Assembly: GCA_051294905.1 (NCBI GenBank)
Contig: CM119371.1
Location: 22,198,001-22,258,000, forward strand
DNA from: Botryllus schlosseri
Taxonomy: Eukaryota
Direction of reading: 5' to 3'
DNA length: 60,000 bases
A program made the position numbers and the translations under genes. This document shows, piece by piece, positions 33,992-60,000 of this stretch. The number at the start of each line of letters is the position of its first letter. Within the stretch, counting starts at the first letter, position 1. The notes under the pieces are model-generated. The model ran no database searches and had not been told where the DNA came from. It worked only from the letters and a program-made list of their open reading frames with translations.

Positions 33992-34452
33992 AGCTAATGA
34001 AAAGCTAATGCAGCTAATTAAGCTAATGAAAAGCTAATTAAGCTAATGAAAAGCTAATTGAGCTAATGAAAAGCGAATGAAAAGCTAATTAAGCTAATGA
34101 AAAGCTAATTAAGCTAATGAAAAAGTAAGCTATTGAAAAGTAAGCTAATGAAAAGCTAATTAAGCTAATGAAAAGCTAATTGAGCTAATGAAAAGCGAAT
34201 GAAAAGCTAATTAAGCTAATGAAAAGCTAATTAAGCTAATGAAAAAGTAAGCTATTGAAAAGTAAGCTAATGAAAAGCTAATTAAGCTAATGAAAAGCTA
34301 ATTAAGCTAATGAAAAGCTAATTAAGCTAATGAAAAAGTAAGCTAATGAAAAGTAAGCTAATGAAAAGCTAATGAAGCTAATGGAAAGCTAATGAAAAAG
34401 TAAGCTAATGAAAAGTACGCTAATGAAAAGCTAATGAAGCTAAAAGCTAATG
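33992..34452 (+). repeat. AAGCTAAT-based minisatellite in the left TIR
   Basis: Mixed units AAGCTAATG, AAAAGCTAATT and AAAAGT. Confidence 0.95.
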
Positions 34453-34893
34453 ACTCTAATAACTATGCTGTAGCACGGGGGCCTTTCGACCCGCCTGGCG
34501 GGAGCAGACCTTTTTACGTGGCCCATGCATTTCGAAGGGAAGTTTGGACTTTGAAAATTTTCGAGCTCGCCTATACTTTAACGTGGGCGACATAACTGCC
34601 CCAACTTTGCCGCGTGTCGCCTACCCCAAAACACGCGGCCCTATGGCAAACCGGCTATACTTGCTCGGATCGGTCCCAGATTTCGTGTGAGCCTAGTCGG
34701 GGGGGGGGGGGGGGAGTGTTTGGCCGAGAATTTTTTTTATAAGTTTCCGAAAATTTTTTCGGACTTCAATTTTTTTCAATTTCGTTGCCATGTTAAAGGA
34801 TAGGGAAGTTGGAGTTTTTTTCAAAAAAAAAAATTTTAATTTTTTTTCTCGATTCCCACTTTTCTGGTATCGTTCGACGCAGCGGACGCAGTA

Positions 34894-35327
34894 CAGTAAT
34901 CTACCGCTTAAGTACGCACCCGTTTAAGTTCGCATCCCAGATAAGTACGCAAAAATTCTTCACAATTTCTGGGTTCAACTATTTCAACAATTTATTTATT
35001 TCGAACAGCAAGCACCATATGAATGCCAGGAAAACACTGCTTGAACATATCGTGCAAAGTCATTTAATGCAAATTCTGCCTTCTTTGTTGCTTGACTTCC
35101 AATGTCACCTGTCTCAGTTTTCGCTGAATGCATTTAAATGGGCTTTTGAGGTTGTCATAAGCACCTCCTGCTTGATCTTGTAAGGCAGGACACAACAACT
35201 GATCCTCAACTTCAAACACTTTATTATGAAGTTGTGCAAAGCCATGAAAAACGATGCTGTTTTCGACAGGTGCAGAATCGTTGCTTACGCTAGCCTCGTC
35301 GTCGGTGTCATCATTTTCGGTCTGCAT
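34894..35327 (-). mobile_element. 3' end of a Tigger/pogo-like transposon with transposase C-terminus
   Basis: Terminus TA|CAGTAATCTACCGCTTAAGTACGCA with repeated TAAGT.CGCA. The peptide has an acidic ENDDTDDE tract, then ...KQQRRQNLH*MTLHDMFKQ, like the pogo/Tigger terminal QxTLxxFF motif. Confidence 0.65.
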
Positions 35328-36031
35328 CGGCCAAGAATTTTTTTTTAAATTTTCCTAATATTTTTTCGGACTTTCGGCTTCGTCTCTTTGCGGTGCTTCC
35401 AACGAGGGGTCGAGCTTGGGGCTGGGCCTCGCAGGAGCTGAGCTATAACACGAAACGTCGTATCTCGGCTCCTGTGCGTCGTAGAGCTAAGCGAATAGTC
35501 GATTCGAGCTCCTGATAACAGAACGAGGATAAAAATCTGAAATATTTCTGCGACCTCCTAGAGCCACGCCGAGGGTACCGGCGTGTTCTACGTGTACTGC
35601 GTCCGCTGCGTCGAACGATACCAGAAAAGTGGGAATCGAGAGAAAAATTTAAATTTTTTTTTATCGAAAAAACGACTAACTCCAACTTCCCTATCCTTTA
35701 ACATGGCAACGAAATTGAAAAAAAATTCAAGTCCGAAAAAATTGTCGGAAAATTTAAAAAAATTTTCTCGGCCAAACACCCCCCATGACTAGGCTCACAC
35801 GAAATCTGGGACCGATTCGAGCAAGTATAGCCGGTTTGCCATAGGGCCGCGTGTTTTAAGGTAGGCGACGCGCGGCAAAGTTGCGGCAGTTATGTCGCCC
35901 ACGTTAAAGTATAGGCGAGCTCGAAAATTTTCAAAGTCCAAACTCCCCGTTGAAATGCATGGGCCACGTTAAAAGGTCTGCTCCCGCCAGGCGGGTCGAA
36001 AGGCCCCCGTGCTACAGCATAGTTATTAGCG

Positions 36032-36430
36032 TCATTAGCTTTTAGCTTCATTAGCTTTTCATTAGCGTACTTTTCATTAGCTTACTTTTTCATTAGCTTC
36101 ATTAGCTTTTCATTAGCTTTCTTTCCATTAGCTTACTTTTTCATTAGCTAAATCAGCATTTCATTAGCTTCATTAGCTTTTCATTAGCTTCATTAGCTTT
36201 TCATTAGCTTACTTTTCACTAGCTTACTTTTTCATTAGCTTAATTAGCTTTTCATTAGCCTAATAAGCTTTTCATTAGCTTTTCATTAGCTTAATTAGCT
36301 TTTCATTAGCTTAATTAGCTTTTTATTAGCTTAATTAGCTGCATTAGCTTTTCATTAGCTTAATTAGCTTTTCATTAGCTTAATTAGCTTTTTATTAGCT
36401 TAATTAGCTGCATTAGCTTTTCATTAGCTT
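36032..36430 (-). repeat. Inverted counterpart of the minisatellite, in the right TIR
   Basis: CATTAGCTT / TTTTCATTAGC units. Confidence 0.95.
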
Positions 36431-38721: not shown

Positions 38722-38952
38722 GTCGTTTACACTGTCGCGGACCGCTAGATGGCAGTCTCTACGCGAAAGTAAATAAGAATAAAAAGTGTGAGAATGGAGA
38801 AAATCACTGTGTAGAAAAAGACCCTTGCGCGTCTGTCAATCAAGAAGAAAACGCAGCGGTGAACCAGTCTAGCGAATGCGCGAATCCGCAAAATCCTAAC
38901 GTGGTAGTTTTGAACGGAAATAAGATCGTATTCAAGCCGCAATCACATCCCG
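38722..38952 (+). CDS. TNS: Tensin-family internal exon (region just after the PTEN-C2 domain)
   Basis: Splice sites tttgtttccag| and CG|GTAAGT, phase 1-1. Encodes RLHCRGPLDGSLYAKVNKNKK, matching the tensin motif HTQGP[LV]DGSLYAKV[KR]KK. Confidence 0.82.
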
Positions 38953-39997: not shown

Positions 39998-40343
39998 GCT
40001 CCCCTACTGTGAAAGCGCCGCTTGCCAACCTCAACGAATTCAACTCGCTCTTCTCCCTCGACTCCTGCGTGGAATCCTACCCATCTTTCTCGACCGTCAC
40101 CAAGCTATCTGTGACGTCATACGACTCCGTCACGCAATCCAGCGCGGAACTGCTACCCGCGCCTCCCGGATACCAGGAGATAATGGCAGACGGACCTACA
40201 TCGCAGGCCGTATCTGGCGAAGTCTTGGGAAGATCTTCTAAATCGAAAAGAAAAGCTGGGGACAAGGCGAGGTTTTCGGAGGTCAGCTCTTGCAGCGCGA
40301 CTACTCTGGGCTCGACCACCAGCGGCGAAGACGGACCTCAAAT
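39998..40343 (+). CDS. TNS: Next tensin exon (Ser/Thr-rich disordered region)
   Basis: Phase 1 acceptor ctctattccag|, open GC-richer frame GSPTVKAPLANLNEF...GEDGPQ, phase 2 donor AT|GTAAGT; phase-compatible with the preceding exon. Confidence 0.72.
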
Positions 40344-40623
40344 GTAAGTGACATTAATTTCGCGAGTGACCGCCAGCAATGCAATGCGGTGTTAGTGTTG
40401 GTTTCGATTTTACTGACTCTTGTATGTCCATTTGTCCATTGCGTTTACTGGTGTTGAGCATATTACTCATTGGGAAGACCTACCTCTGAGTATAATTGAA
40501 ACAAACTCACAGAAACATATTCATTCATTTATTTATTCAATTGCATATTTTCGAAATATCATTTACAGTAACATTTTGTTGGAATATCAGAGTCGTGTAT
40601 ATCCAAACGATTGGTTATTCCGT

Positions 40624-40970
40624 CAGGCATGGGTGATGTCCATCGAGTTCGTTTCTATACTCGATTATGACTATTTTATGGCCATTGCCCATTGAGCATA
40701 ATAGCATTTGCGCATATTGCCCATCATAGTCATACTAGAGTCACAGTCGAATCAAATCGAACTCCAATTTACACGTTTTGATTCGAATCCAATCTAGTCA
40801 AATATTTGTTTGTGTATTTATTTCGTAAATAGTTAATGTGTTGATTTGTCGCAATATCAGAGCCAGAACTATGCGAAATCTTGATTCGTTATTCGAAATA
40901 TCTCGATCTATTTAAATCTTATAGGCATACCGAGGGATTGCGAACCGCCTATTCGAATTACTCATCCCTG
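40624..40970. mobile_element. Degenerate MITE with ATTCGA motifs
   Basis: Ends CAGGCATGGGTGA...TTACTCATCCCTG with tattcgaa motifs inside. Confidence 0.4.
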
Positions 40971-41092
40971 ACGATCACTGTTGTATTCGGCTGTGTTCGG
41001 AACATGCGGCTATTTAAATGTTGTGCTATCAGAGTATTATCCATCGTTCGCTTACGTATTTCTTGTGGCAAGGAGTAGCTGGCTTCTTCTAG

Positions 41093-41282
41093 CGATATAG
41101 TCAATTGTAGCAGCCTGTCATCATTAGAAATCAGTCTTAAGCAGGTCCAGGTTTTTCAGCAAGATCTGTATGGTGAACGCCCGCAAGATCGCGCTGTGAA
41201 CTCGCCATTGAAAATCAGCCTGAGTGAAATTGTTGTTGCATCGAGAACGCCGAAACTCACGGGTGCAAAGACGCCTTTGAAA
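41093..41282 (+). CDS. Possible further tensin exon
   Basis: Phase 2 acceptor cttcttctag|C continues the frame as DIVNCSSLSSLEISLKQ...SRTPKLTGAKTPLK. The donor AAA|GTAATG is weak and no conserved motif is present. Confidence 0.3.
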
Positions 41283-42520
41283 GTAATGTTACACGAGTCA
41301 AGTCTATGGTTGAGAATATGCCATAAGTCACGCAGAATATTGTTTTTTCGGCGATATTTTTGGTTTTCATAGTTGATAGCGTTAAGACAGTTACCGAGGT
41401 ATTTTAGATCTTCTGTCTGCCCTCGTTTTCATGGACTTACTTGGACACATCATTATGAATTTTTTTATACTTTGATTTGCTCTACGAGCTCTGTGTATTG
41501 AAGTGGTTTTGCGATCATGTCTATTTTATCAGCGAAATTGTTAACCGCGGGTAAATATAGCTGCTGGGTCACGATCGCGGAATACAGTTTGAAGTTTTCT
41601 CCGTATTTTCGTAACGACCTTGTCCATTATGAGTTTGTCGCGGGTGTGTTTTCAAAAATTCGTACAGCTGCCGTTTGTTGTTGACAAATAAATCTGGCTA
41701 CGTGCCGTCCCAAGGTAATTGCTGTTGGTTGAGATTTTCTTTAAACTATCGCATTTTACTGTTACTTGAATTGCATTTAACATACTTGTGGATTTGTACT
41801 TGCAGTGAAACATTATTTTGCAGCATTGGCGTTATGTCTATATGTGTAGCATTAGTTACACTTTGACCAACTCTGGAAAAAGAAATTATGAACCACTGTT
41901 ACTGGGTGTCCAAATGGCGTGACGCGATATTGTCGAATAACCGCTCCCCTAGACAAGTTATGATAAAGCGGATGTGACGCTGTACGCTCCATCAGCGCGC
42001 GGGCCTGCCGCTGTCCTATCCATTCTGATTATCCGCTGTCTTGGAATGTTCCGGGCTTTCTCTGTGACGGCCAACCCTAATCATGAATTCACCTAGCTTT
42101 TTCGCGTGTCAATGCAAACACATATGTGGTCAATGCGGTAACGCCGTACTTCTACATTTCCTAGATTTTGCCTAATTAGACTATGCTTACTCACGAGGTC
42201 CTGCTTTTATTCTACCTCTATTTCACAGGTCTCGTCTTTTGTGGGTTGAAACGTGGGCATAAGAGTACTTACTTGCTTTTTACTTACTGGAAATTACTGC
42301 TTCTACTTGCAATTCACATGAGTGGACATCTACGACGCTATTTCTAATTGGCATATCTAGGACTACTATATTTACATATATACTTACGGTACTCGAAAAT
42401 AGCTAATATTTGCTTGGAAATCCCTCCGACTTGTACTTAATAGGAAGATAAGGCGCTTTTTCTAATTTTACTCCGAACTTCACTGGTCTTTAGGCGAATC
42501 TATACAAGGGTTGCATTTTA

Positions 42521-42798
42521 AGTGGTGGTGAGATAGCGTAGTGGTAAATTCACACTTCACAGCCATAGCCCCAATGAGTTGCGGGTTCGAGTCCGACCGT
42601 GGTTGACTCCAGAATTGCTACTCAAGTGTTGGCGGTTTATTTAGGCTCCTCCTCGCCATCTCATCCGTGTAAGCGATGTCTTATAGAAGCCTAGAAGTGG
42701 GCCGTGCTACAAGTCGGCAGCTACGGATTAAAAATGATGGAAATTGGCCTAGCGTAAATGGTCAGGGTAGTCGACAAGCATCATGAATATCACTATCA
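42521..42798 (+). mobile_element. Near-full-length tRNA-derived SINE
   Basis: A-box TAGCGTAGTGGT and B-box GGGTTCGAGTCC; body repeated at 13722-14352 and 48785-49003; degenerate TSD TACAA..TTGCATTTT on both sides. Confidence 0.8.
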
Positions 42799-43569
42799 TA
42801 CAAACTTGCATTTTTACTTACTCTAAAAACGCTACTTCTACGTTACTTGAATATGATTGTACGACCGTCATTTCAACTTCTACTTTACATTTCTCAGTTC
42901 TTACGCAACACTAGGCCTACGGACTTCATTTTAATTTGATTTACTTGGGAATCGTTACTTCCACTTGTACCGGAGTAAAAATTTGCGATAGATCTCAGTG
43001 TTTTAGTCCTTACTGGACATAGAATACTTAATTCTCTACTTGGAACTAGGTACTTCTATACAAACCTGAGTAGAAATTTAGGACTTTCCTTGTACTTCCA
43101 CTTGAGTTCCTACGATGACTACGTTGACCACCTCTGTTTAAATCGCGGGTGGCGCACTGTCAGTTCTCGCTAATGCCAATGTTTATCTTCGCCTACCCAC
43201 TCGTATCGCGTATCACTTACCGGCGGCCGTGATTCATAAACGCCGCACGGATGCCGGCCATCCCAATCGCCAGATTACAAAGGCCGCTAATCCCTCGGAA
43301 TAAGATTTTAGTCGCTATCAGGCAAGTTGCCTTTTCGCTTAATTTGATCAACTCGGGTCGGTGCCAATGGGGCGAAACGGAAAGGAAAATGTCACATCAC
43401 CCTAAAAAGTGGAACGTAATCGCGTAAGTTACATTTGGCGAACACGAATCAAAATCTCGAGCTGAGCAAAAATACCTCGCGAAGGATATGTCGTCAAGTA
43501 CCTGTGACGTAATAGAAGAAGTTGTCACCTGTTCAGTGTTCAGTTTACTTTTGGTTTATATCACTAGGA

Positions 43570-43900
43570 ATGGATATTGTTTTTCAAGTATATGGGCCAA
43601 ATCCTCTAAGAAATGAGTAGACAGGGGTTAAGAAGTCTCTAATGCACTGAATGTGTATAGTTACCGTTGATTGGGTTATATCGATTGGTATGAATATGTT
43701 TGCCAGGTATTGATGAAATTGCTTGAAAGTTGGTTAGAACGTGGTTAAAAGACCCCTATACGGCCAACGTGTATCTTGACTTGGCTTCTATCAATTGGTA
43801 ACAATATATTTGTTGACTATGGGCAAAATTATTAGAAAAATGGTTAGATATTGGTTGGAACAATCACTATGCAGTGCACGTGTATCTTGACTGGGCAGTA
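43570..43900. repeat. Degenerate ~110-bp tandem repeat (~3 units)
   Basis: ACGTGTATCTTGACT.GG at 43768 and 43878; TATC.ATTGGTA and TATGGGC.AAAT recur. Confidence 0.45.
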
Positions 43901-43926
43901 GGTTCTGGACACATCACGTCAGAAAC

Positions 43927-44000
43927 CAGGGGTGTCAAACTCAAGTGGCTCCGCTGTCCGGATGCAGACCTGCAAATCGCTCGCGGGCCGGACCAGTCAA
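43927..44000. mobile_element. Terminus of a Charlie-type element
   Basis: CAGGGGTGTCAAACTCAAG...CTCGCGGGCCGGA; partner end not identified. Confidence 0.55.
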
Positions 44001-44657
44001 TATATTCCAAATAGTTACCTCAAAATCCATGCCCGCGTTCTTCACTTAAATACTCGTACTGTACTCATTAATATACTATTCTAGCAACACCTTTATCCGT
44101 AAACAATGAAATTGACAATAGTACGATTATTGGTCGATTGAATACAGTTATTTAACGACGATACACGTTGGCATATTGCTATGATGACTTTGTTTGAGTC
44201 TAAATCTGGCAATAGTCATGTGTATGCGTTGTGAGGAATACACGAGATTTGACTGTAAACGCAGACGTTTGGTTCATTATTATTATATCGCGATTAATTT
44301 CTTTCTGTTGCGATCACAGATATTTTAAATGTATTTTTGTGTAACAATTATGATCTCCAGGTAGCCTGCATACACGGTTTCTAACTGGTTTCACTTCTGT
44401 GAATAACCACCTTTAGTTTCATTTGTCCACAAAACTCTGAGCTCAGTGTGCGCTGTGCACTTTATCCCTTCTCAGAATTACGTGTCAATTACAGCGACTT
44501 GTTGCTCTTGGTCATGACAGTGAAACCGTAACACCACTATCGGATGGTTATAATGTGGCCATTGAACATAATCAATATTTTCTGTCTTGAGGGATTATTT
44601 AATGAAAGTAATCTCAGCATTTGTCAGAAATGTGCTGGATAATACAGCCATTGTTCA

Positions 44658-45045
44658 GAATGGTGTCCGGTCAATACCGAGAATGTTATTACCGAGAATA
44701 CCGAGAATGCTATTACCGAGAAGAACAATACCGAGAATAGACATTACCGAGAATGGACATTACCGAGAATGATATATGCAATGCAGGCATGTTATGAATA
44801 TGAACAGGTCGTGTGTGTGCATCACGGCGTTGCCACATTCGGTATCGATCCTCAGGTATAAATTTTGCGACAACTTACGTTACATTAAGCTAGATTCTTG
44901 GCATTGACCATTCTCGGTAATGTCCGTTCTCGGTAATGTCTATTCTCGGTAATGTCCTTTCTCGGTAATGTCCATTCTCGGTAATAGCATTCTCGGTAAT
45001 GTCCATCTCGGTAATAGCATTCTCGGTATTAGTATGGACCCATTC
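44658..45045. mobile_element. Palindromic MITE with ~15-bp TACCGAGAAT tandem units in both arms
   Basis: (ATTACCGAGAATRGAC)n at 44674-44771 and the inverted (ATTCTCGGTAAT)n at 44893-45030. Confidence 0.8.
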
Positions 45046-45152
45046 GTGCGGAGGAAGTCTCACAATACATTGTGCGGCGTTATCGTCTATGGAAATCGAT
45101 ATTCGCACCAGCTCGCGGTATTTAGATGGTTAAAAATCTATATACTGTATGA

Positions 45153-45500
45153 CAGGGGTGTTTAACGTACGGCTCGCGGGCCGCATTCGGTCCACTAGAC
45201 GATTTCATCCGACCCGCGAAGCGATACTGAACGTTCCAGATTTTTAACCGTCTCAATACCGCGAGCTGGTGCGACCATCGATCTCCGCAGTCGATAACGC
45301 CGCTCAATGTATTGTGAGATTTCCTCCGCACGTATACCTGTCGACAACGCAACATAAACTTGTCGAGGGAAACCTTGACGAATTGCTTTCGCGATTACCG
45401 GACGCTGCCACACGCGCGCTAGCATTCTCGGCGGGGGACACACTTTGCATTCTTGGCCTTCCTACCCCGCTGCGCCGTTCGCGCTAACGCCGACTAAACG
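45153..45500. mobile_element. Left end of a Charlie-type element
   Basis: CAGGGGTGTTTAACGTACGGCTCGCGGGCCGCA...CCGACCCGCG; inner boundary uncertain. Confidence 0.6.
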
Positions 45501-47358
45501 GGAGATTATTGCCATCACTTATTCATTTCAAAGCCAATCCCGCGGTGTGTAGCGCGCCATTGCTAACCGATGTTGCAACGAGAGGTATCCTGTATCTAAG
45601 TATACTTTCACTGTTACACAGAGTTCCCAAAAAGAGACCCCCTGTATCACGATATCTGAATATAGTTTCAAAATCTCCATTAATTGTAGTACGATTATAG
45701 TAGTTTCGCTGTAGTCGCGAGCATACGCCTTGCAATTTTGAAGGTCTATCCACTCCCGCTGACCTACTGAAAGTATGTGTTCCAGACTGAAAGTACGTGT
45801 TCCAGACCAAATCTTCCACTTTTTCAAAGTTATTGAATTTTCTGGTAGAGGTAATTACATGATCTTCAAATTGCATCTTCTTGCAATTGATCGAAATTAC
45901 GATGTTCGTTCATTTCTACTTGAGTATAGCAACACCGACTGCATTGGCCACCTCAGGTCGAAACATCTATCATTTGTTACCTAATGGGCTATTCAGGTGT
46001 GTTAAATCCGCGATGATTCGATGTGTCGAAGACCTTTCCTTCCACTTCCTTTCAATTACCGGCTAGGAATTTCGCAAGTACAATGCGCCCGCGCTTAACG
46101 CGCGGGTGGTATGTCCGGACAAATCGCTGTTCAAAGCGTCGCTATTCTCCTGAGCCGTGTTTGCGTTACGCTTTGGCCGTTTTGAAGTGTCCGAATAATG
46201 CGGTTAAGTGCGGATTTGTGATGATTTCGAACTTGTCTGGTCAATGAAGCTAGTCAATGGAATGGAACCTACATTCTGGCGGTTATTGGCCCTTGTTGAT
46301 TACCTGAATGAGATGAGATGCGAGTCGATTTACGAGTAACGAACGTATAAACCTTCACTTCTAGAGTAATATTTTATCAACAAATATATAGTTTGAATAT
46401 TGCACGTACCCGACCATCGTTGTAACTTCGAAACCTTGGCTAACCGTAGTTCACCATCAAGAAACATGTTGTACAAGGCTACTAATACTCATGGAGCCGT
46501 TAGACGTTAAAGCAATCATCATAATTTTGATTGTTATTACGACAAAACGAATCAGACTATTTTTTCAATTTAAATATATTTATATTCGAGAAAAGAAATT
46601 GCGTTCACGAAGGTGAAAGACCTAATAACTTCTGTAACTGCAACGACACTTCTAGTAACATTTGTGGCAGCTGTTGTTCAGCCAGCAACGCCAACGATGT
46701 TGCACAGGGCTACTGATATTGATAACACTACATGCTGTCAAGCTTAGTGATCATCGACCCTCACTATGGTCACAAAGCGATATGAAATAGTCAAGGTCCC
46801 GAAATGCAAAATTATTTTGGGTGATCCGTATCTGGTATCATTTCCCTGTGTCCTCAAGAACAATAATAGCTGGACTTTTCAAGTCATCATGGCTTTTTTT
46901 ACGACTCGACTTGCAGCTTAGTTGAACTCGAAATCGAAGTGCCCAGGCATATATAATTGATACGGTTTTCATCACTGCGGATTGTCTGATATCGCACTTT
47001 CTTAGGTGATTAACGATTTTGTAATATTGTGTTGGCTATTCCTATCCGGATCAGTCTATTTCGTAATCGCCAGACAGGGTCATGTTTGTTAACTCGTGTC
47101 GTACCCAAATCTGCTCAGCCATAACAATAACGTAATGCGGTCTTGCTAACCTAGTTGTGTTTTGCCGTCTCGCTACAACAAGCTCACAAAGTCACTGGGG
47201 TAGCTGTATTACCGGCACGGCATCCAGTACTAGCTGGGCGGCCCGGACTTGAAAAACTGACTATTGTAATTGCGGTATGATGCATATTGGATTCAAATGT
47301 ATAGAAAGATCCATGCAAAACTAAAATCACTACAATATGTTTGAACGTGTACCTAGAT

Positions 47359-48028
47359 TAGGGTTGCCATACGTCCGGAATTTCCCGGACATGTCCGGAA
47401 TTTCACTGTTCAAACTAGCGTCCGGGAGGAATTTCTAAAATCTGCCAAATGTCCGGAATTTTGAAGACTTGACGTAGGCTCATAATTTTTTCGTAAATCA
47501 GCATAAAACAATATTTTTTAGGAATATTTGTGTTGATGCATGATATTTTTCTACGCGCTGCGCGCGATTTACTATCACATTTTCAAATTGGAGATGGAGT
47601 CGCGACCATTAAAAGTTGGAACTTGGAAGCCACTGGATGGGGGGTGTTTATAAAGCTCCATGGTGCGCATCGGCATAAGGCTGATAAACAATCTTATCGG
47701 TAGGACATGAATATGACTTGACGATGTGCTGTGCAATCACGCTCCTTGTATTTTCGAACCCATCATCCTCCACGAGCTCTACCGCTAATTCTGATCATGT
47801 GGGCGGAGAATAGTAGCTTTATAGTAGTAAATGGAACGACCAATATTATTGACAGAATTCATTCAAATAATTTAACGACCAGATGCATATAGAAACCAGA
47901 TTCATATAGCAAGTACCTCTGGTCTATGAGCAAAGCTTTGCTAGCGTGACGTCATAACCCATTTTGGAATCCACTGGTTGGCGCTAAAGAGCGTCCGGAA
48001 TTTGGGTTGCTGAAATATGGTAACCCTA
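47359..48028. mobile_element. MITE family B (TAGGGTTRCCATA TIR)
   Basis: Ends TAGGGTTGCCATACGTCCGG...TATGGTAACCCTA; flanks ACCTAGAT / ACTAGAT; GTCCGG repeats. Confidence 0.85.
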
Positions 48029-48784
48029 ACTAGATACGATAAGACGGCTTGCATATAACTTCGAAAATGATCATCACCTTGTATGCAAAGCGGTATTTTT
48101 CGCCATTCTCTGACATTCGTATGTATATTCAATTGCTATCATGTTCGGTTATATATAGATTTAAAGTATTGGTTCTGCGGTGACATTAGGGTTTGAGGCT
48201 GGATGCTGCCTATTGCCTATAGTATTACCATTCCCACACAAAGTTTATGGGCTGTTGAACAGCAATTACGTCTATAATATCGTTTTATTTTGTTAGTGGG
48301 CTGATACAAACTTTATTGCATAGAGTGATCGTGATGCTAGGAACACGATACGTTCTCTACCTGTAAATATATATAGATATTATGTCATCGTATTGGTCAC
48401 GTCGTGCAGAACGTGTCGACTTCGTGTGTTCGTGGACGGCTTGGAGCAGCCGACCCCATGCACATTATAAATTTAGAAACGATGGTCGATGGGTCGTTAG
48501 TTAATCCAATATAAGTATCGATACTTTTCGTAATTGTGTGATATTATCAGAGGAGTCATGATCTTGGATGTGAAATTACTTGTTTAAAATGTTAGGCTGG
48601 ATTCGTATTCGGAATCGCGAAGTTTCCCAATGTTGCTATAAGATTCTCATTCACACTGACATTTGCGAATAATTCCGAGTATACTTTCATATTTCGTACA
48701 TTACCGGCCTTTATCACATATAGCAGAGAAGATATATGTTCGAATTTGCCTGGTCTTTATTAAGGTCATGGCGTCATAATATGG

Positions 48785-49003
48785 ATGTTTGTTTGTGGAA
48801 TTCGTGATGTTCTTTGAATATACGATGGACCATCGTCGATGGTCAGTTACACCAGGCCTACATTTTTATCATCATTCCATGTATATTCCCATTGCCCAAT
48901 GCCCAGTTGCCCACTAGTAACACGGCCTACTTCTAGGCTTTGCAAGACGCCGCTCATGCGGATCAGATGGCGATACAGGCCTAGATTAACCCCCAACACT
49001 TGG
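48785..49003 (-). mobile_element. Diverged reverse SINE copy
   Basis: CACCAGGCC, CTTCTAGGCTT, GATGGCGA and CCAACACTTG are complementary to the 42521 SINE body. Confidence 0.7.
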
Positions 49004-52000
49004 ATAGGAAGTGTGAAGGTCCAGACCCACGAAAGTCTCCTTGTGGCCGCAAAAACATACATATTCGAAATATTGATGCCATTATTATTGTTTACGTCAT
49101 TCTATGGAGTAATGCACTCTAATAGTCGACTTGATTCGAAGCTTTATATGTGTTTCGAAATCGAATCACTCGGGTCACTCAATATTGCGTAGTCCTAGTC
49201 ATTAATATAGTCAGTCTAACCGACCGCTTGGACGCGTATATCTAATTCCCACAACCGGCCAGGTACTACACCACCACACTCGAGTTTTTCCAAGTTTTCG
49301 CTAACATTCTACTCCGAAAAGCGACAGTGAGTCAGAACTGTAAGCGATGATTAAAAAATTACTGCGAAGCCGCTCTATAGAAAGAGACATTCTCTAAGTT
49401 TGTTGTTTTCGAGCTCGCTTTGAAATTACTCCGCTATACGCTTGTCCGAAATGCTGTTATTACACCTTATCCGCTACGCCAGGCCTGTTATTAACGATCT
49501 TTCACACCTTTAGTGTTGTTGACATCCCAAATATGCGGCGAGACGTCTAAGAGATTTTCGAGTGCCTGTCAGTTATTCCTCGCAGCCTTTCTGCTTTTCG
49601 TGGCGCGATTGTAATATTTTCCATTCGAACACGTCCGCGCGTTGCAATGCGCGATAGCTATCTGACATCGGCGACTTGGGGCTGAGTAATGGCGCGTTCG
49701 GGCCGCGTCAGGTCAACCATTTCACCTTTTTGAGATTGCAATAAGCGATACAATGTTCCTTGTCAGCGCGATGCCGCATTATCGCGACCCGCGTGACCTT
49801 AAGTTCTGTCGATGCGGTTGTTTTGAAATTTTAAGGTGTTATTCATTCGGTCGCTTTAAATGTCGCGGCGGACTATGACTATGACTATACTTTGCATATA
49901 TAGTACGCTAAAATTCCGTTGTTCGAGTAATGATACGGTATAAATATAAAGTGTACGCACTGGAGATGTAAAATTGTACCAGCACATACAATCACATTAA
50001 CTGCGTAATAAACTACTTTGAATGTATCGATAAGAGAGTATCGATTGGCGTCCAAGCGATTGTTTTTCGTACCAGTATCGTTTCTGCAATTTGTCTTATG
50101 GCATAAAATACGACTGGATCCAAATCCTGAATCTGATCCTTAGGTATCTACCAAGGATATAACTATACCTACAACTTTGGGCGCTATCTGATGGATTATC
50201 TCCCATAGGGGCTGAAATATTCAATAATCTGGATGAGCCCAGAGGTGGCCAATTCTCTACTAGTCGTTGACGATTACCCGTGACGAGTGTCAACCGAAAA
50301 TATCCGGGCTCATTTCTATATGAATAATTTGAATGTACTATTAAATTGTATGTTGAAGTTCAGTACGTACAATAATCACTTCTATTTGTGTACCAACTAT
50401 TACCGCTTTGATCACCTCTCGCTAAACCATGCTCGTGGAGGTGGTGTCCGACACGTACCTGCTTCAAATGCCATCTTGTTGGAGAGTCCCATTTAAGCCA
50501 TGCAAATGACGATGACATCTTTGCTTCACGCCGAATATTACAGCGATTAGCAGCGATTAGCATTACGATTCATACCAATTCGAAACAATCGCTTTACTGT
50601 GATAGCGCGTTTTGACACTCCGCAGACGAACCCAAGGAATTTTACGTAGCCTTCGCCCGAACTAGCGTATTTTTACTCCACTATTTCGGCTACGCTTTCA
50701 GTGTGATGTAATGGCGAACGCATTAACTGCGCGCACGAACGGGTTCTCGGAAAAGCTGGCCGTTAAGCGTCAGTTATGCCTATCGGACGGGCCATCTATC
50801 ATCATTGCAAGATTTTGTGGTAGCGGTCTGCGTATACAGTCTGTATTATGATATATGCGCTATCTTCAATATCGAATCAACTCAGTTTTGTTACTGATTC
50901 GAGTCGGCTGTACAGAAATAGATTCTTAACACTCTCGCATACCTTTTGGTTGCTTCCTGTGCGTGCAACTGTTCATCTGAATCAGCGGTTGTCGACCTGG
51001 ACCGCATGGAAATTTTGAGGTGGGCCACAGTCCAGAGTTATTTGTAAAATTATGAAGCTTGTGAAAAGCTTAGTTTTATTTGTTTGCGGAGATATCACAG
51101 TAATGCACGCATGCACCGATATCATTGATTGATTCAGTCATTAAATTTAATGACTGGAGAACTATTGCGAACTGAATTTTGATGATATCAGTACTTGTGA
51201 ATTCCGTGTGTATAGTTAAACAATAAAAACAAATAAATAAGTCTTGCGTTCGCCGTTGAGCCTACCTAGTCTAGCTCGTACGTGAATTGTGTGATACGGG
51301 GCTTCGTTCACTACCGCCATAACTCGGGGTAATCACCCTGAGCCTCCCAAGGTCAGCCTTTCCTTGGCGCGGGACGTCATACAAAGTCCTGTTTCCGTCC
51401 TGTAACCACGTATTACTTGAGCCATATGTCACATTTCGTTCATAACCCTACTGTAAGGCTACTCCGGCCGAAGTATACTTTATTAATTATATTTATGACG
51501 TACCTATATTATTTACTATAAATATTACTTATATAGTACATATGTTGGTCATATTCATTCGTGAAAACCATCCATAATGGCGCCGGTTGAGGATCACATA
51601 AAATAAGACGGTTAAAAGAAATGTGAACACTTGCAAAGTAAACCTTCTCTCATCGCACCCCTGCCACAGCCCGTTTACCGCAATGACATCCGAAGGTGTT
51701 TAAGCTGACAAAGAACCGTGACGCAAATCACAGTTCTGTTGAATCCCATGTACCCGAAAATCCGAGAACTAGTTGCATCGAAATAAATACCCTTTTAATT
51801 TTATCATTACTGGCAATCCTCAAATTATACAATTGTTCACCGTTTTCTCACTAAGGCATACTCTAATTACGCGTAGCGATAAGCTATGTTGTGATTGCGG
51901 TCTTGAAAAAGCACAACATTTGCTGTTTAAGGACTTTTCGAATTGGGTAAAGGTGTTGACACCTGTCATAATATACTTGAAAATTCAATTTAATTTTGGC

Positions 52001-53609
52001 TGCGGGGTCATAATCATGGCTTCATCTTAATTTGGCAACGTGGTTTCCGTTAATGTCCTCGATTGCTAGACAATTGTCGGAAATGCTCCTCAACTCGTAT
52101 TGGTATATCTTTTTAAATAGAATTAATAATTTAAAGTAAGAAAAAAAGTAATTGCTAACAGTAGTAGTCAAGAAGGTTGACACTGTGCTCATCGCCCAAT
52201 TGCTCACGCCTCGGATGAAGGGGACAAATCCATTAAAATGAGAAAATTTGACATGAAACGCAGGCAAATTTTGTATTGGAGACATTTTTGTATTAGAAAG
52301 TGTCGATGGCGTGATTTTCATCTCGCGATATGGTGGAAATGTTCATTGCAGGGTATTGCAGTATAATGGCTTTTACGTTGAGCAGTTCTACGTGACTCGA
52401 TTTGATATCGCGCTCCTGTACGGAAGCACACACATACAGATACACTTGTCTGAGATTATTTCAGATGTCAAATCGCGCAAAACTCGGCCATTATAGCCGC
52501 ATCAGCGAAACGCATACGTTATTTCAAATTAAGGCAATGCCTCGCTGACGCACGGAGCGCTAATCATCGCCACGCCGACCCAGGCAAAAACACATGTAAG
52601 GGAAATGGGAAATGCGTGTCCCATTAGTCAGACACGGCAAACCTGATTTACCCGGCTTTTGGTAGAATCAATACTACGTATCGCGGTTGATACAGGCGCT
52701 GAGCTTGCTTACATCGGATAATCATTTTTATGTTTACGTACCGTTACTCCCGTGTCACGAGTTCACAGCACCTTTGCCATTCAGATGGTTGGAACAATGT
52801 AAGTGCGGCGCATCGCATTGGTGTCAAGTGCAAAGCGCTGTGAATATGTAATCGTGCCGTGTCGCGGTATTGTTTGGGCTAAGTTTAGCGGACATTATCC
52901 AGTGATTAATCAAAAGCTTTACAAATGAAGGTGTCGTTTCGCATTATATCGATTAAGTACACTATACATGGATGGAAAATAAGTGTAGTTACCATCAATT
53001 TCTACCAAAGCGCAGGGTGCAATTCGGGCCATCCACACTTCTTTTACGTCTATTTCAATGATTAGTAGCGCGTCAACTGCACCAATCCTTAACGATATAT
53101 ATATCCCATAGCTGTAGTGGATTATGTTAACGTGTTCCACGTTTTTTGTCCTTCTTGGCCTGGCATGAGACAGTAACACACAAACCACCACCCCTTGGAT
53201 ATATATCGATAAGAATTAATGTAATTGCATCATTTCACCCATTGGAATTGGCGTGAAAGTAAATTCATTTACTGGAACGTGTCGTTATCCTGACTTGCTC
53301 CCTATGCTCTGGTGGAAATCCGCAAAATTCATGATTTTCATATGCATAGCAGTGTTTTTTCTTAAATGGGTGTCAAAAAGATTTATCTGCCATATTTAAA
53401 CCATTGAATAGGGCGTATATTATTCCCTCGTTCCGTTCTGGTACGAAATCTGCATTTACGCCCGTTGCAGATGATGCGAATGCGTAGTTGAGTATACTAA
53501 GGCGTGTTTTTTCGCATTATTGGTGGGATACACGGTAGCATAGCCCACTATGGGCTTGGGATACATATACTACAAAGCCTGATGTGACCTTTGATTGATA
53601 CGTATTAGC

Positions 53610-53773
53610 TAGGGTTACCATATTTTGGAATCGGGAAATGAGGACACTTTTTAAAAAAACATTCGAATTTTGAATAACTTAGCTCTAGAAGCTGTAAAGA
53701 AGGACGAATTGCCAAAAAGAAATACATTTTCAAAACCCCGAAAAAGGGACGAATCCTCCTAAAGGTAACCCTA
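53610..53773. mobile_element. Short MITE family B copy
   Basis: Ends TAGGGTTACC...GGTAACCCTA; TSD GTATTAGC / GTATTACC. Confidence 0.85.
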
Positions 53774-54245
53774 GTATTACCTTGCCATATTGGTTTCGCG
53801 TTTGACTCTGTTTGAATCCCTTTCGTTTGTCGATAGCTATTGATATCAGACACGAGAAAAGAGCTATAATGAATGTATCCTTGCAATGGATGCTGTGGCT
53901 TTTGCCCGTCTTGCCCGACATAAATCTTCCCCGTTTACAATAGATATGTCAGTATATCTGAGCACGATCATACGATGCATTTAGATGCGATATACTTCAG
54001 TACTATACATACACTTCGGCTAAATTTGAGGCTTGGGGTTTGGTTACGTTTAGATTGGGGTTTAGAAAAGCGCATGCTTCGGTATCGCATGCATGTTGTT
54101 TTCCATTGTGCCGCACGCTATAAAAAGGCTGGCAACCCATAAATCCATGTGTCATGCTCAGCGCCCACATTGCTCACTCACGTTTGCAGAAAATTTTGCT
54201 CATAGCACATCTCAGATCAAAGCCCCCGGTTTTATCAAGATAACG

Positions 54246-54438
54246 TCATCCGCGATTCAGTCCGATGCAGGCTAGATATTCCAAACGAGCCGACGGCACA
54301 GGAATAGAACTACGCAAGCGTCTCGTTCCGGCCTTGTCTTGTTCTTGATCTCGCGTTTGCAATATATCACAATCAAAATGCTTTCGTCTGGCAACGCGCT
54401 GGTAAGGTAGATCGCAGTGGTTATAGCTATAACTAAGG
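54246..54438 (-). CDS. Terminal coding exon of a putative antisense Cys-rich protein gene
   Basis: Phase 2 acceptor ttttacacag|C; reads LSYSYNHCDLPYQRVARRKHFDCDILQ...LACIGLNRG*. This is a different frame from the listed 54272-54475 ORF. Confidence 0.5.
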
Positions 54439-56063
54439 CTGTGTAAAATCGAATAACAGAGCGATACTGTTCCAAGTCTAGTATGAAGCTTCGAGTCGAA
54501 TCGAGTGTACGGGTACCGCTCTTCTTGGCGTCATAACAGTAGGAGAGACTTGGAAGTGTGGTAATGCCTACTTTTTGGCAACCAGGAAGTAAATAACGCA
54601 GGATACATGTAGTTATATGGAATATTTCAAGTTTGCTGACAATAATCTGTCATTGCGAGCGTGTGTCGCGTTTCCCATAGTTTGACAGTTGGGAAATTTT
54701 CAGCGTTTACAAATTAGATTTGAAGTAGTATTACAGATATACGCAGTTTCTTTCCAAATTAGTTTAGAATTAGAAATATAGCTCTCCAAGTAAGTTTATT
54801 AAACAACTCTAATTATTTAGTTGTGAAGCTCCGCCTCTATTGCGTGTATTGAATGATACGCTACCTCAAGAGTACTGCGATGGCATGAGATTATCGTAAG
54901 GACAATTTTCGCCCACAAAAGGAAAGGGGGGGGGGGGTTCGCCGAGCTGCTATGAGATTGCCCATCGACCTAGCCTGATAAAAAATGTGTCTAAAATCCG
55001 ATCTGGCTATGCTCTTGCGAAAAACGCCAGCCATTGTGAACACACAACACAATATGTGAATCATGTCATCGCAATTCAAAAGTCAAACACACTTACTGCC
55101 AAGTTCGCTAACCGTGGTATCGTATTATATTCCAGACCATTTTCGTAGAATCCATAGATTCGATTACACGTTTCCCGCATTCGCGATTCAATTCAAAGTC
55201 GTCTTTGTCTCACAGAAAAATTTGCTTTTCCACAAATTACCGGGTGACATAACAGAACGGATGTGCCTATTTGGTTTCGCAGCGTTTGCGATACGCGTTG
55301 ATGTACGACCTTATGCTGAAAACAGTTGATATCAGCACAAGCTTAGTGCTGAGTGGCGTGGCTGAGTAGGATATGCTTTAAATCGGGATTGCTCCAGTTG
55401 GAAAATAGATGATCGGCTGGTATTGTACACTGTAAACGAAAATCGCGTATTTCAACTGTTTTCATCGTAGCTTATCGTGCAAATCTGATAAACGACCATT
55501 TATGGTACACAATTATGCTTTCAAACCCATTCCACTTACGAAAACCGAGTCAAAGAAACCCGTTGGTATGGAGATGTATGTATATTCCATGCAGTGGCGT
55601 ATGGGTTCGTTCTGTTGAGATATATTACCGTTTTGCGACCTCGTTGGGTGGTATATAAAAACAGAACCTATAGTCCATCCCTGGGTGATATCCCCATACG
55701 AATTGGCATACTTGTCTCGTGTTTACCCATTAGAATGGATGTGAAAGCAATATTCTTTAGAGCAAAGTGTTCTTGACCTGATATGCACTCCACGCTAGGG
55801 CGGAAATAGACGAAATGTACAATTTTCCTGGTACAAAAGTTAACTCACTATGAACGGTTGATGAATTCCGTAGTGTATAATCGGATGCTATAATCTTCAA
55901 AATATGTACGCGTTATTGCACGAATTGAAACGCGAATCGTAAATCATAAATCAGGTGCATAGGCTTAATCATATGTCTTAATCATAAATGTTCGTAGAAC
56001 GCAAATGATTAGTAATAGCCCTGTGACCTGGAGCAATAAGAAATGACCAGTACGGGTCCTGAC

Positions 56064-56229
56064 CTCAGGTAGATGGGCAGGCAGTCGACGTTAAACTTAT
56101 CATTGTCCAACCACACACTGTCACACCACACTCTCTTGTTGACGGTTAGCACTGTCGCATTTTTACACGGACTCAATGTTGACTTCTCATTTGCGAGGGT
56201 TGTGTCGTACACACAGTTACCCGTGGCAC
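56064..56229 (-). CDS. Middle exon of the putative antisense Cys-rich protein gene
   Basis: Phase 1 acceptor tttttcaaacgcag|GT and phase 2 donor AG|GTCAGG; reads ATGNCVYDTTLANEKSTLSPCKNATVLTVNKRVWCDSVWLDNDKFNVDCLPIYL. Confidence 0.55.
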
Positions 56230-57412
56230 CTGCGTTTGAAAAAGGCGCTGCAGATTTTGATCTGTTGGTACTGTACGCCTGACTGGATCACCGCCCCGCG
56301 TTTACGATATGTTAGATATCTCGGCAGATGCGCCTTTTCGAGAGTTAGTGTTTCAAACGCCGGCGTTAGGCAGCGCCAAGATATTTTGTCTATTAGAATC
56401 CGATTTTTATCGATGATTTCACGTAGAGGTGTTAAGATCTTCGTACGCGTCGCTTGTTGATATACCAGGAAATACAGCCGCGAAAATGGTAGCAATACAT
56501 TCGGATATGATCGAGTTATAGTGCCAAATTTCAGGCTGGTAATAATTGGTATTGGCGTACATTCCCATCAGGTAATTTTTCACCGGTAACAATGCTTGGT
56601 GCTTGCAATTTAGGCAAAATGCTTTCGAGTTTGTTTTGCTACCTGCGGAAATAGTAACGCATCAAGTTGGGAGTCTTAATCTCATGTGACGTCATTATGC
56701 AGGTAACATCACAATGTGAACGCCAGAAGACCCTTTTTCTTGGTACTGGTGGTCCTGTTATTAATACGCTCAATTCCAGTTCCGGTTCCAAATTTCGATC
56801 TTTATAGATTGACAACCAGGAGTTTATTATGGCGCAAATCCAGGCCCTGCTATGATTGAAATTGAAATATTATTTATACTTTCAAACAGTGTGCGAACGA
56901 TCAATATCGGTACTATAGTTTCGCTGCCCAACCGGACTACATTTACTAAAACGTTCTGTATCTGACCAGCGTTTCGAATCCAGCCAGAATATTAAGATTT
57001 CTTTTACGTTCAAGTTCAAATTTATGCTGATCAGCGCGGTAGGGACACACCTTACCCGTAATGGCGCAGGATAGGTCGGTATTACGAAGTACTCAGTACC
57101 GGTACTCGAGCTCAGCTTGCATCTTAGCATAATCACTATCAGGCCAACTCGCGCAGTTTCGGTAATCGGTAATGAAATTATTTTCGGATATTTCGAGACT
57201 TGTCAGTCTGCCGCGAAATTAAAATTCAACTTGATAACCACTCATCATTCCGGAAGTAAAATAGCTACCGTGGTATTAATGTGCGATGTGGTGTAATCGG
57301 TGACGAAGACCTTTTTTTGCGCATAGTTGCCAGTGATGTTGAACTCTAGCAGCGTAGCAAATTATTGCAGCTGGTGCCGTGCGCTTGTGAGTTGGTCAAT
57401 GCTTATCTATAA

Positions 57413-57881
57413 TAGGCTTACCATACGTCCTCTTTTAAGAGGATTTGTCCTCTTTTTTGACTTTTTTGAAAGTGTCCTCGGAGGACGCCCTTTTGTCCTC
57501 TTTTTTGAGATTTTGTCCTCTTTTTTGAAAATTTAGGTCAGATTTAGAGGAAATTGCGAGTGATATGCCGCAAATTAGCGCAGAAGTGAAGCTCCGGCGG
57601 GTATTTCGGAGGGAAAAGTGGTGATTTCAGCTCTGAGCGAAAAGAAGACCTTTTTTTTTTTTTTTTTTAGTCATCTACCTAGCAATGTGGAGTGAAAAAC
57701 GTGTTTTTGAGCTCTGAGCGGAAGTGATGACCTTTTTTTTTTTTTTTTTTTTTCTTGTTTAGTCAACCGATCATGAAGCGGGTGAAATTTACCTGTTTTT
57801 GAGAATTCTTCTCCAGTTTTGCTTGTCTGAAATTTCTGAAAAAGTGTCCTCTTTTTTCATTTCCGAAATATGGTAAGCCTA
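57413..57881. mobile_element. MITE family B variant (TAGGCTTACCATA TIR)
   Basis: Perfect TSD ATCTATAA; TGTCCTCTTTT repeats; two internal GCTCTGAGCG...GACC-poly(T) modules. Confidence 0.92.
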
Positions 57882-58891
57882 ATCTATAAGAATTCAGTTG
57901 AAAATAATTTTACGTAATTCTGCTTAATCTTTGACCGCGCAGGGTGTTCACAAACTGGGTTTGTTAGATCTACTACAGCTGTCCAGTTCCAGCTAGTAAT
58001 CGCGTTTAGGACAAGCATGAGGAATGTGCAAAGCCAAGATGTAGGCTCATTGTGACCTATTTGTAGTGTCATGGTCGTTAGTCGAGAGGATGCAATATCG
58101 ACGAGAGTTACGCGAGCGGAATTAAGTGAGGAAGCCACTAGCGCTTTAACCCAAGAGACTTCGAAGTCTAAAAGAATAGCGCCCGACCACTGTCTTTCGG
58201 CGCTTACATAGCTCAGTTCATGAACCGGGCGTTGTCCAGCGGAATTCCAAACTGTTCAAGATTGCTCTTTGGGCTCGCGGGTCATCTGACGACGGCTGTG
58301 TTTACGGTCGAGGCGCAGATGCTATCGCTAGCATGACTGATGCAGAAGGCATCGCTTGAGATCGCTGGCGCATGTAGTGTAGGTTCTTTAAAAATTCGTG
58401 CCCGAACTGAGATACGAATCAATCAACATGGTGGATATATATCAAGCTGATTTGGTTCCTACTTGAGTATTAAGCATCGGGTTTAGAGGTATGATTTTAT
58501 AACAGTGATAACGAAATGAAATGTTCAAGAACGTATTTTCTAGCGCCCACAAGGAAAGTGACACCAGTTACCCGTTATCCAAACAAACACCGGTATCGTG
58601 TTTATGGACAATGGCTATCTCGTAGCGCTTTGTGACAACAGTGAGGGTCGATCATTACTCGGCTGAAATGCCGTACCATGAATATTCGTAACCTGGTGTA
58701 ACATGTTTTTCTATGGTGAACTACGGATAGTCGGGATTGTGACGCTCCAACGTTGGAACTAGAACAGGTTTATTTCAAACTAGAGTCCGCGGACTGGTTT
58801 TAAGGGTAACATAAGGGTAACATGTACAGACAATGAAAATGTCAGTGTTGCTCGATCAAAAACGAAGTCACGATATTGAGTTCTTGTAGAT

Positions 58892-58945
58892 CAGTGGGTC
58901 TCAAACTGGGGAGAGTTAAATCATCTGGAGGGGGCGCGAAGCTGC
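58892..58945. mobile_element. Left end of a hAT MITE
   Basis: CAGTGGGTCTCAAACTGGGG...GGGGGCGCGAAG. Confidence 0.45.
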
Positions 58946-59505
58946 AGTCAACTGAAAAACTTTTTCGCGAAAAAAATGGCATTCGGTATTCCTCGAATTC
59001 AGTAAAACGAGCATTTGTAACCAGTTTATTTTTATTCTGTTTTCATGCGTTCAGATTTATAGCCGGACTCAGGTTGAAACAAACCACAAACATTTTAGGG
59101 CCCGCGCTTCGTGTTGTTAGTGACACTATATTTATCGCATATCAAAATTGATTTTATGTGAAGGTATGTATATATATTGTCGTTTTGCGCAAAAAATGAC
59201 TCTTGCTATATTCGAATTATTACTATTGATACACTTCTAACCATCTCACCCTGGCGCCGTCAGTGCAGCTTCGCAAGATAGACTCCAATTTTACGTAGGC
59301 TCACCCGAGCCTATCGGTGACCTTACCTACTAATGATTACGTCACCGGTTCGCATCCCGCGCGCGCCGTCGGATCATCCGACCGAAGCCAGCGAAAGCAA
59401 GCCAGCGTATTATGATTTCCATGCTCATCGCCTGCATCAATCTGGATTAGCGATCCATGTAATTTGACGTAAGCCCCGCAAGGCTGTGTGCGCTACAGGG
59501 CTTAC

Positions 59506-59592
59506 GAAATTGTGAGTCGGTCGCTTTAGGCGTGGAGGTGGCCGAAGCAGTCGTCGTTAGTACTCGAGTCGAAGTAACTTCGTAATTCTCCA
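59506..59592 (-). CDS. Thr-rich exon of the putative antisense gene
   Basis: Splice sites tatatttcag|TG and C|GTAAGC, phase 1-1; reads ENYEVTSTRVLTTTASATSTPKATDSQF; the other two frames are closed. Confidence 0.5.
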
Positions 59593-59740
59593 CTGAAATA
59601 TACGTAGAACTAGTGGTATTCAAGTAAGTGAAAAGGTAAATATTCCGGTTTCTATCTAGTTTCGCATGAAAAATGATAATCATTTAGTAGAGTAATTAGT
59701 CTGAATCATAACCACTTGGATAAGTATGACAGTACGTAAT

Positions 59741-60000
59741 TATGGCTGGGCAAAATCGAGTACCAGAGTGATTCGATTCTGAATCACGTATTATAATTCA
59801 AATCGAGTCGAGTATTCGAGTATTACTCATTATGACATCACAGCAGAATGTAATATGTCAAAGTTCAAATATGTACCTTGTGTGCCATCACAAACAATAT
59901 AATGTCTCTTATCCATCACATTACCGAAACTTTGGTATTTTTTCGAACATACCGAAGTCATTGTACTTTGTGACAAAGTTGTGGGACGATCATGACTTCG
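59741..60000 (-). mobile_element. MITE family A, reverse copy truncated by the window edge
   Basis: TATGGCTGGGCAAAATCGAGTACC..GTGATTCGATTCTGAATCACGTA is the reverse complement of the family A right end. Confidence 0.88.

Follow-up and report, generated by a model that had tools for sequence, protein, structure and literature searches.

We describe a candidate antisense gene in a 60,000-nucleotide (nt) stretch of the genome of the tunicate Botryllus schlosseri (contig CM119371.1, positions 22,198,001 to 22,258,000), here called the window; this animal DNA has a GC content of about 41% and carries numerous short repeats. We tentatively favour the explanation that three minus-strand segments near its end are exons of a real gene for a secreted protein, lying antisense in an intron of a tensin gene, while holding this to be a little less than evenly probable. 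The proposed exons (window positions) are:

59506 to 59592, minus strand: exon A, 87 nt, internal, phase 1-1, 28 codons with 12 Ser/Thr, a putative O-glycosylated stalk
56064 to 56229, minus strand: exon B, 166 nt, internal, phase 1-2, 54 codons, with one N-glycosylation sequon
54246 to 54438, minus strand: exon C, 193 nt, proposed terminal exon, phase 2, 63 codons, stop codon at 54248-54246

The coordinates, splice sites and phases given for these exons in the initial annotation proved exact. All three segments are preceded by AG, exons A and B end before GT, the phases agree, and the joined segments form an open frame of 147 residues that closes with TGA at 54248-54246. The joined product contains, as had been claimed, seven Cys residues (34, 50, 64, 78, 92, 107 and 141) and a single sequon, at residue 52. 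The first four Cys codons belong to exon B (56215, 56167, 56125 and 56083) and the last three to exon C (54416, 54371 and 54269). The first six Cys are spaced by 16, 14, 14, 14 and 15 positions, and this period runs across the B/C splice. The highest 19-residue hydropathy of the model is 0.63. An in-frame ATG lies 49 codons above exon A, and no signal-peptide-like stretch was recognized by eye after it; one or more 5' exons with the start codon and a signal peptide would most likely lie beyond position 60000.

Read in this way, the locus would be a single-copy, lineage-restricted gene in a long tensin intron, with its own promoter beyond 60000. Its product, plausibly secreted, stalked and disulfide-rich to judge from the predicted sequence, would be exported by means of a signal peptide or membrane anchor encoded in the missing 5' exon. 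Exon A would provide an O-glycosylated Ser/Thr stalk, followed by a compact, N-glycosylated C-terminal domain of about 75 residues, in which six evenly spaced Cys could form three disulfides, leaving the seventh free for a dimer. The most likely role of such a protein would be the binding of an extracellular partner (a growth factor, a receptor or a sulfated glycan) and not enzymatic activity. A basic patch with four Arg/Lys in residues 93-106 could bind sulfated glycans, much as gremlin binds heparin according to the available text of PMC8835488. Of these elements, the open frame, the splice signals, the Cys spacing and the identity of the tensin host are observed, and expression, secretion, disulfides, fold, function and nesting are inferred.

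The chief alternative is that there is no gene, and that three pieces of intronic DNA were chosen for happening to splice into a protein-like frame; we consider this unlikely, though far from negligible. The exons were scored with a crude splice-plus-codon model (splice weights and average protein composition), which assigned 12.2, 26.1 and 6.4 bits to exons A, B and C, and 55.4 and 30.5 bits to the two tensin exons listed below. In the window, exon B is outranked only by these two tensin exons and by an antisense shadow that one of them casts; the score of exon B was reached by the best single exon in 6 of 40 simulated 60-kb windows. None of 1194 overlapping stretches free of stops reached the G+C content at its third codon positions (0.65). 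Under a codon-position model with the tensin exons as training set, exons A and B exceeded 99.4% and 98.8% of stop-free stretches and exon C showed no codon signal, 33% of null stretches scoring as high; this model is weak, the tensin exons themselves being reached in cross-tests by 10% and 15% of nulls. Exon A encodes eight Thr, a number reached by 0.06% of 5116 stop-free stretches, and it is the sole one among 354 exon-like candidates with at least 42% Ser+Thr, a threshold set after exon A had been seen. This Ser/Thr-rich exon lies upstream of exon B, on the same strand and in a compatible phase. Its donor is weak (2.6 bits), and its total of 12.2 bits is matched by a rival candidate at 56642-56466 (12.5 bits). 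The regularity of the Cys residues, noticed post hoc, was equalled by 35 of 1,028,790 random placements, and for exon B alone by 6 of 903. Homologous internal repeats between exons B and C were rejected, their alignment scoring 15, a value reached by 479 of 488 null stretches.

Other results weigh against the existence of the gene. The sum for the three exons, 44.7 bits, was beaten by the best chance chain in 40 of the 40 simulated windows, and therefore the GT-AG sites with matching phases constitute no evidence; the two-exon score was likewise within chance (38.3 versus a null mean of 40.4). Cys is not enriched, since as many residues occur in 11% (exon B) and 30% (exon C) of stop-free stretches of equal length. 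No poly(A) signal was found within 2.2 kb of the stop codon, the nearest downstream ATTAAA and AATAAA being at 51994 and 51484. The candidate thus departs from chance in the third codon positions of exon B, the composition of exon A and the Cys period, but not in its chain score or its number of Cys; it should be borne in mind that the crude model penalises exons rich in Cys, Arg and His.

Expression and homology searches add to this side of the balance. Four of the 24 sequencing runs listed were compared with positions 40001-60000, and neither of the splice joints proposed for the candidate (59506/56229 and 56064/54438), which the initial annotation had expected in spliced reads, was among the joints listed. 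In run X1, the depth of the bins containing exons B and C (3.76 and 1.66) did not exceed that of the flanking intron (3.68-6.21), as against 15.2 for spliced tensin; this negative is weak, as it comes from a single sample, and it is a guess that the sample is RNA. The raw RNA runs X5 and X9 have zero depth at exons B and C and also at the tensin exon, and hence are uninformative; 97-99% of their matched reads diverge onward. In favour of the gene, the bins that hold exons B and C have a low depth and are single-copy. Run X2 resembles DNA of another individual, with 52 differences over 56027-57052 and, among the rows listed, 39 differences plus 22 gap letters over 53772-54958.

A word search returned four candidates for exon B and ten for exon C, none of them significant. 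HMMER revealed no homologue of exon B among 1.84 billion representatives. Its three matches (a PKD/T9SS repeat protein, a repeated trypsin fragment and a simple repeat protein) were rejected as false, each being a sum of 5-8 stretches in an unrelated sequence. The Atlas contained no usable match for exon B or C, with recognition values of 1145 and 1241, below its mark of 2300, which the tool itself calls uninformative. Scanned singly, a procedure in which a split domain loses score, exons A, B and C matched no Pfam family, and nothing credible was found by Pfam in 131 minus-strand frames of the 45-60 kb region. Among PDB sequences there was no match to exon B and six weak, unrelated ones to exon C (best expectation value, E, 0.078). 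Three metagenome loci were discarded, as they showed only short stretch matches inside unrelated, microbial-looking reading frames. AlphaFold models of single exons were unusable (mean predicted local distance difference test, pLDDT, 40.3 and 41.9); Foldseek with the first gave no matches at E up to 10, which is meaningless at such confidence. A tensin exon used as a word-search query produced 25 candidates, none at E up to 10, and the B. schlosseri proteome is probably absent from the collection; the blank searches therefore argue only against close conservation. With both sides considered, we regard it as probable that some real coding gene occupies the locus.

The proposed host gene is tensin. 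Its elements on the plus strand are:

38722 to 38952, plus strand: tensin exon with the motif GPLDGSLYAKV, top-scoring splice sites
39998 to 40343, plus strand: next tensin exon, Ser-rich central region, 55.4 bits, spliced out at GT 40344
40344 to 60000, plus strand: predicted tensin intron enclosing the candidate, no SH2/PTB match, next exon candidates weak

The eleven residues of the motif are identical to the Tyr366 peptide of human tensin-1, as given in the available part of PMC5889215. Letters 427-770 of a 2847-nt contig of run X1 match positions 40001-40344 (the exon ends one base earlier, at 40343) and are followed by 2077 further letters; the depth of this contig fully explains that of the tensin-exon bin (7.84 expected, 7.82 seen). 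Tensins end in SH2-PTB. The absence of these domains from the window, pointed out in the initial annotation, was borne out: none of the 142 plus-strand frames downstream with a length of 38 residues or more matched SH2/PTB, short SH2/PTB motifs gave nothing convincing downstream, and none of 121 upstream plus-strand frames of at least 52 residues matched PTP/C2 or SH2/PTB. Tensin should therefore extend past 60000, with the candidate in its intron. The tensin host and the nesting are thus supported by the 11-residue identity, the spliced contig that departs at 40343 and the lack of an SH2/PTB match, and a real candidate gene would very probably be nested, although small unconserved tensin exons may exist within the window. 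The best phase-compatible candidate for the next tensin exon after 40400 reaches 17.5 bits. A reading of the candidate DNA itself as plus-strand tensin exons was rejected, there being no family match and no phase-compatible candidate above that score.

Neither antisense genes nested in long introns nor orphan proteins rich in Cys are unusual in kind. The candidate resembles known cases of such nesting in lying on the opposite strand, in having several exons, and in occupying an intron of more than 19 kb in a large host gene.

Some further observations concern tensin itself. An in-frame stop directly follows the tensin donor (40342-40347, plus strand), and intron retention would truncate the protein before SH2/PTB. 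Some 190 letters that the contig of run X1 carries upstream of the 38722 exon are unplaced. An exon-like segment at 25172-25319 (plus strand), with a strong phase-1 donor (10.6 bits) and an ATG near 25232, would join the 38722 exon in frame; it is possibly an alternative first exon of a short tensin without the N-terminal domains. No PTP/C2 exon was found in the 38 kb upstream.

If exons A and B are real, the gene may still end elsewhere than in exon C, or contain further exons, in which case the Cys pattern and the fold argument would change. The alternative endings with recognizable features are:

52744 to 52837, minus strand: alternative terminal exon in the same phase, 30 codons, keeping the Cys period and ending in a Cys-Cys pair, 5.6 bits (6.4 for exon C)
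56009 to 56063, minus strand: read-through of exon B, adding 18 codons, with a stop at 56009 and a fifth Cys 16 residues past Cys 78

We judge a different ending to be fairly improbable. Exon C, as noted, lacks a codon signal, and several other phase-compatible candidates score above it in the crude model; in the read-through, the codon score stays level and the Cys is placed 16 residues on. On the other hand, the donor at 56064 is the best near the end of exon B (7.0 bits versus 3.4 for a weak second donor GT at 56027, within the read-through). Of the 824 acceptors in the window that are open and phase-compatible, just six carry the 14-16 Cys period on for two more steps. Exon C is favoured as the terminal exon but not fixed, because its acceptor at 54438, which is also the nearer one, scores highest of the six, but that at 52837 also qualifies, and the exon there fits the relaxed six-Cys pattern considered below equally well.

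Several observations were made around these ends. The alignment of a 1063-nt contig from run X2 runs from 57052 and stops exactly at 56027, which is the G of the weak minus-strand donor, and 37 letters at one end are unaligned; this edge may be due to chance or mark a second splice site. A 54-nt segment at 50943-50996 (minus strand), with strong splice sites, 19.6 bits and phase 2-2, is compatible with the exon B donor. Another open frame, of 54 codons, lies over exon C and is partly hydrophobic, with hydropathy peaking at 1.38; it was dismissed, being phase-incompatible with the 56064 donor and without a Pfam match. An echo of a ricin-B (QxW) pattern in the read-through form was set aside, as it has no Pfam support.

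For the favoured three-exon product, the best lead to a fold is the two-finger scaffold seen in cystine knots with an eight-membered ring (DAN, gremlin, cerberus, GPA2 and GPB5). Cys 34, 50, 64, 78, 92 and 107 would correspond to knot 1, extra I, knot 3, knot 4, extra III and knot 5 or 6; with the pairing 34-78, 50-92 and 64-107 all six would be partnered, at the cost of one ring disulfide and the ring Gly. The basic patch would fall in the second finger. The Pro that follows Cys 4 of the candidate at a distance of two residues is a usual feature of such knots. In the available text of PMC3224965 and PMC8835488, the residues between Cys in gremlin, cerberus, DAN, GPA2, GPB5 and the glycoprotein-hormone beta subunit (GPH-beta) number 13-16 from 1 to I, 12-13 from I to 3 (14 in GPH-beta), 18-27 from 3 to 4, 13-16 from 4 to III and 15-18 from III to 5. 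In the candidate, the corresponding numbers are 15, 13, 13, 13 and 14. Three of the four finger lengths are inside the published ranges, and the last (14) is short by one residue if it leads to Cys 5 (15-18) or by three if it leads to Cys 6 (17-20). Besides the 1-I, I-3 and 4-III distances (15, 13 and 13), the candidate shares with DAN, GPA2 and GPB5 an odd seventh Cys, and with gremlin and SOSD, as described in the available part of PMC4079206, a long N-terminal stretch preceding the Cys domain and, putatively, N-glycosylation.

A relaxed version of the six-Cys pattern was found in 13 of 50,000 shuffles, in 2 of the 6,139 two-exon chains that the window yields, each time with exon B, and in 8 of 200 simulated windows, never together with an internal exon scoring 20 bits or more; the pattern was drawn after the sequence had been seen, which makes these odds optimistic. 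The comparison is also burdened by clear departures. Loop 2, from Cys 3 to Cys 4, has 13 residues where 18-27 are published. The full formula, CX13CX8-9CX3CX14-18CX2CX13CX15-18CXC in the text of PMC8835488 that was available, does not describe the candidate. The ring CxGxC and the ring CxC are absent from the model, and none of 3011 downstream acceptors supplies a terminal CxC. The available text of PMC4079206 calls the six knot Cys invariant, and that of PMC3224965 describes the ring Gly as conserved in all eight-membered rings. Unlike DAN, GPA2 and GPB5, the candidate lacks knot Cys 2, the ring Gly, one Cys of the terminal CxC and Cys II, has a short loop 2, a short last gap and a 40-residue C-terminal tail, and has single exons that match neither Pfam nor PDB sequences. 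By definition it is not a member of the DAN and glycoprotein-hormone families. It may work like their proteins. A degenerate, knot-derived fold, suggested by the Cys spacing, is in our estimate improbable. We give a similarly low rating to the idea of a tunicate-restricted descendant of the DAN/glycoprotein-hormone proteins which opened its knot through the loss of one ring disulfide on both sides and of the ring Gly, shortened loop 2, gained a mucin-like stalk and would act as an "unknotted" growth-factor-type ligand or BMP/Wnt trap that sequence profiles do not see. Of the initial description of the protein as "cystine-knot-like", the resemblance in spacing to the DAN/glycoprotein-hormone type stood, and the defining ring features are missing.

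The initial annotation had also seen the layout of IL-17 in the candidate, and this likeness did not hold up. The idea of a divergent IL-17 cytokine draws on a Ser-Pro dipeptide, Cys-x-Pro-Ile-Tyr and Cys-x3-Tyr, which are present in IL-17 order, and on the divergence of invertebrate IL-17s, in which single motifs can be lost (PMC4517768, in the part available). Measured against the MEME motifs 1, 2 and 3 defined there, the candidate agrees at 4 of 16, 4 of 11 and 4 of 14 positions; of 2000 shuffles, 1983, 1374 and 1847 do as well or better. The SPW (chordate) or CPW (invertebrate) motif, as defined in the available text of PMC8353272, is absent, with two of three positions agreeing, as in 1407 of 2000 shuffles. 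The terminal CxC had rightly been reported as missing, since the 147-residue model contains no CxC anywhere, and the single exons have no IL17 match in Pfam or PDB. The candidate is, like IL-17, a small and putatively secreted Cys protein with a loose order of a few shared residues, but IL-17 keeps four knot Cys, including the terminal CxC, whereas the candidate is without the three motifs, SPW/CPW and CxC. Membership of this family is, in our opinion, highly improbable. The family does offer a precedent for a cystine-knot fold minus one knot disulfide, replaced in chordates by two Ser (available parts of PMC4517768 and PMC8353272).

As a nested orphan gene only, the candidate would be a gain for annotation, adding a lineage-restricted secreted protein to those of the vertebrates' sister group. 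If it were an "unknotted" DAN-type protein, evolution would have arrived at a reduced knot by a second route, independent of that of IL-17, which would suggest that the DAN-type repertoires of tunicates are undercounted; a vertebrate-centred survey, in its available part, contains a single urochordate DAN-family sequence (10.1101/794404). In the literature within scope, from which most subscription journals fell outside, no description of the candidate gene or of a ring-less DAN-type tunicate protein was found, and titles and the beginnings of abstracts described no gene nested in a tunicate tensin intron.

The window also contains a variety of mobile or repeated sequences. The one next to the candidate is:

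59744 to 60000, strand not assigned: high-copy repeat upstream of exon A; depth very high in each of the four runs, loose ends at 59744

Several short elements of high copy number, with inverted ends, are situated at 44673-45335, 47340-48030, 53610-53660, 57413-57881 and, as listed above, 59744-60000; some of them are heavily represented in RNA reads, on both strands. At 3610-3870 (minus strand) there is a remnant of the C-terminal dimerisation region of a hAT transposase (PF05699, E 4.4e-5, above the curated cut-off). A 2.4-kb element at 33991-36430, enclosed by long mirror-image arrays of a 9-20-nt unit (33991-34453 and 36042-36430), looks like a foldback-type transposon; it includes an acidic frame of 96 codons (35064-35354, minus strand) with no Pfam match.

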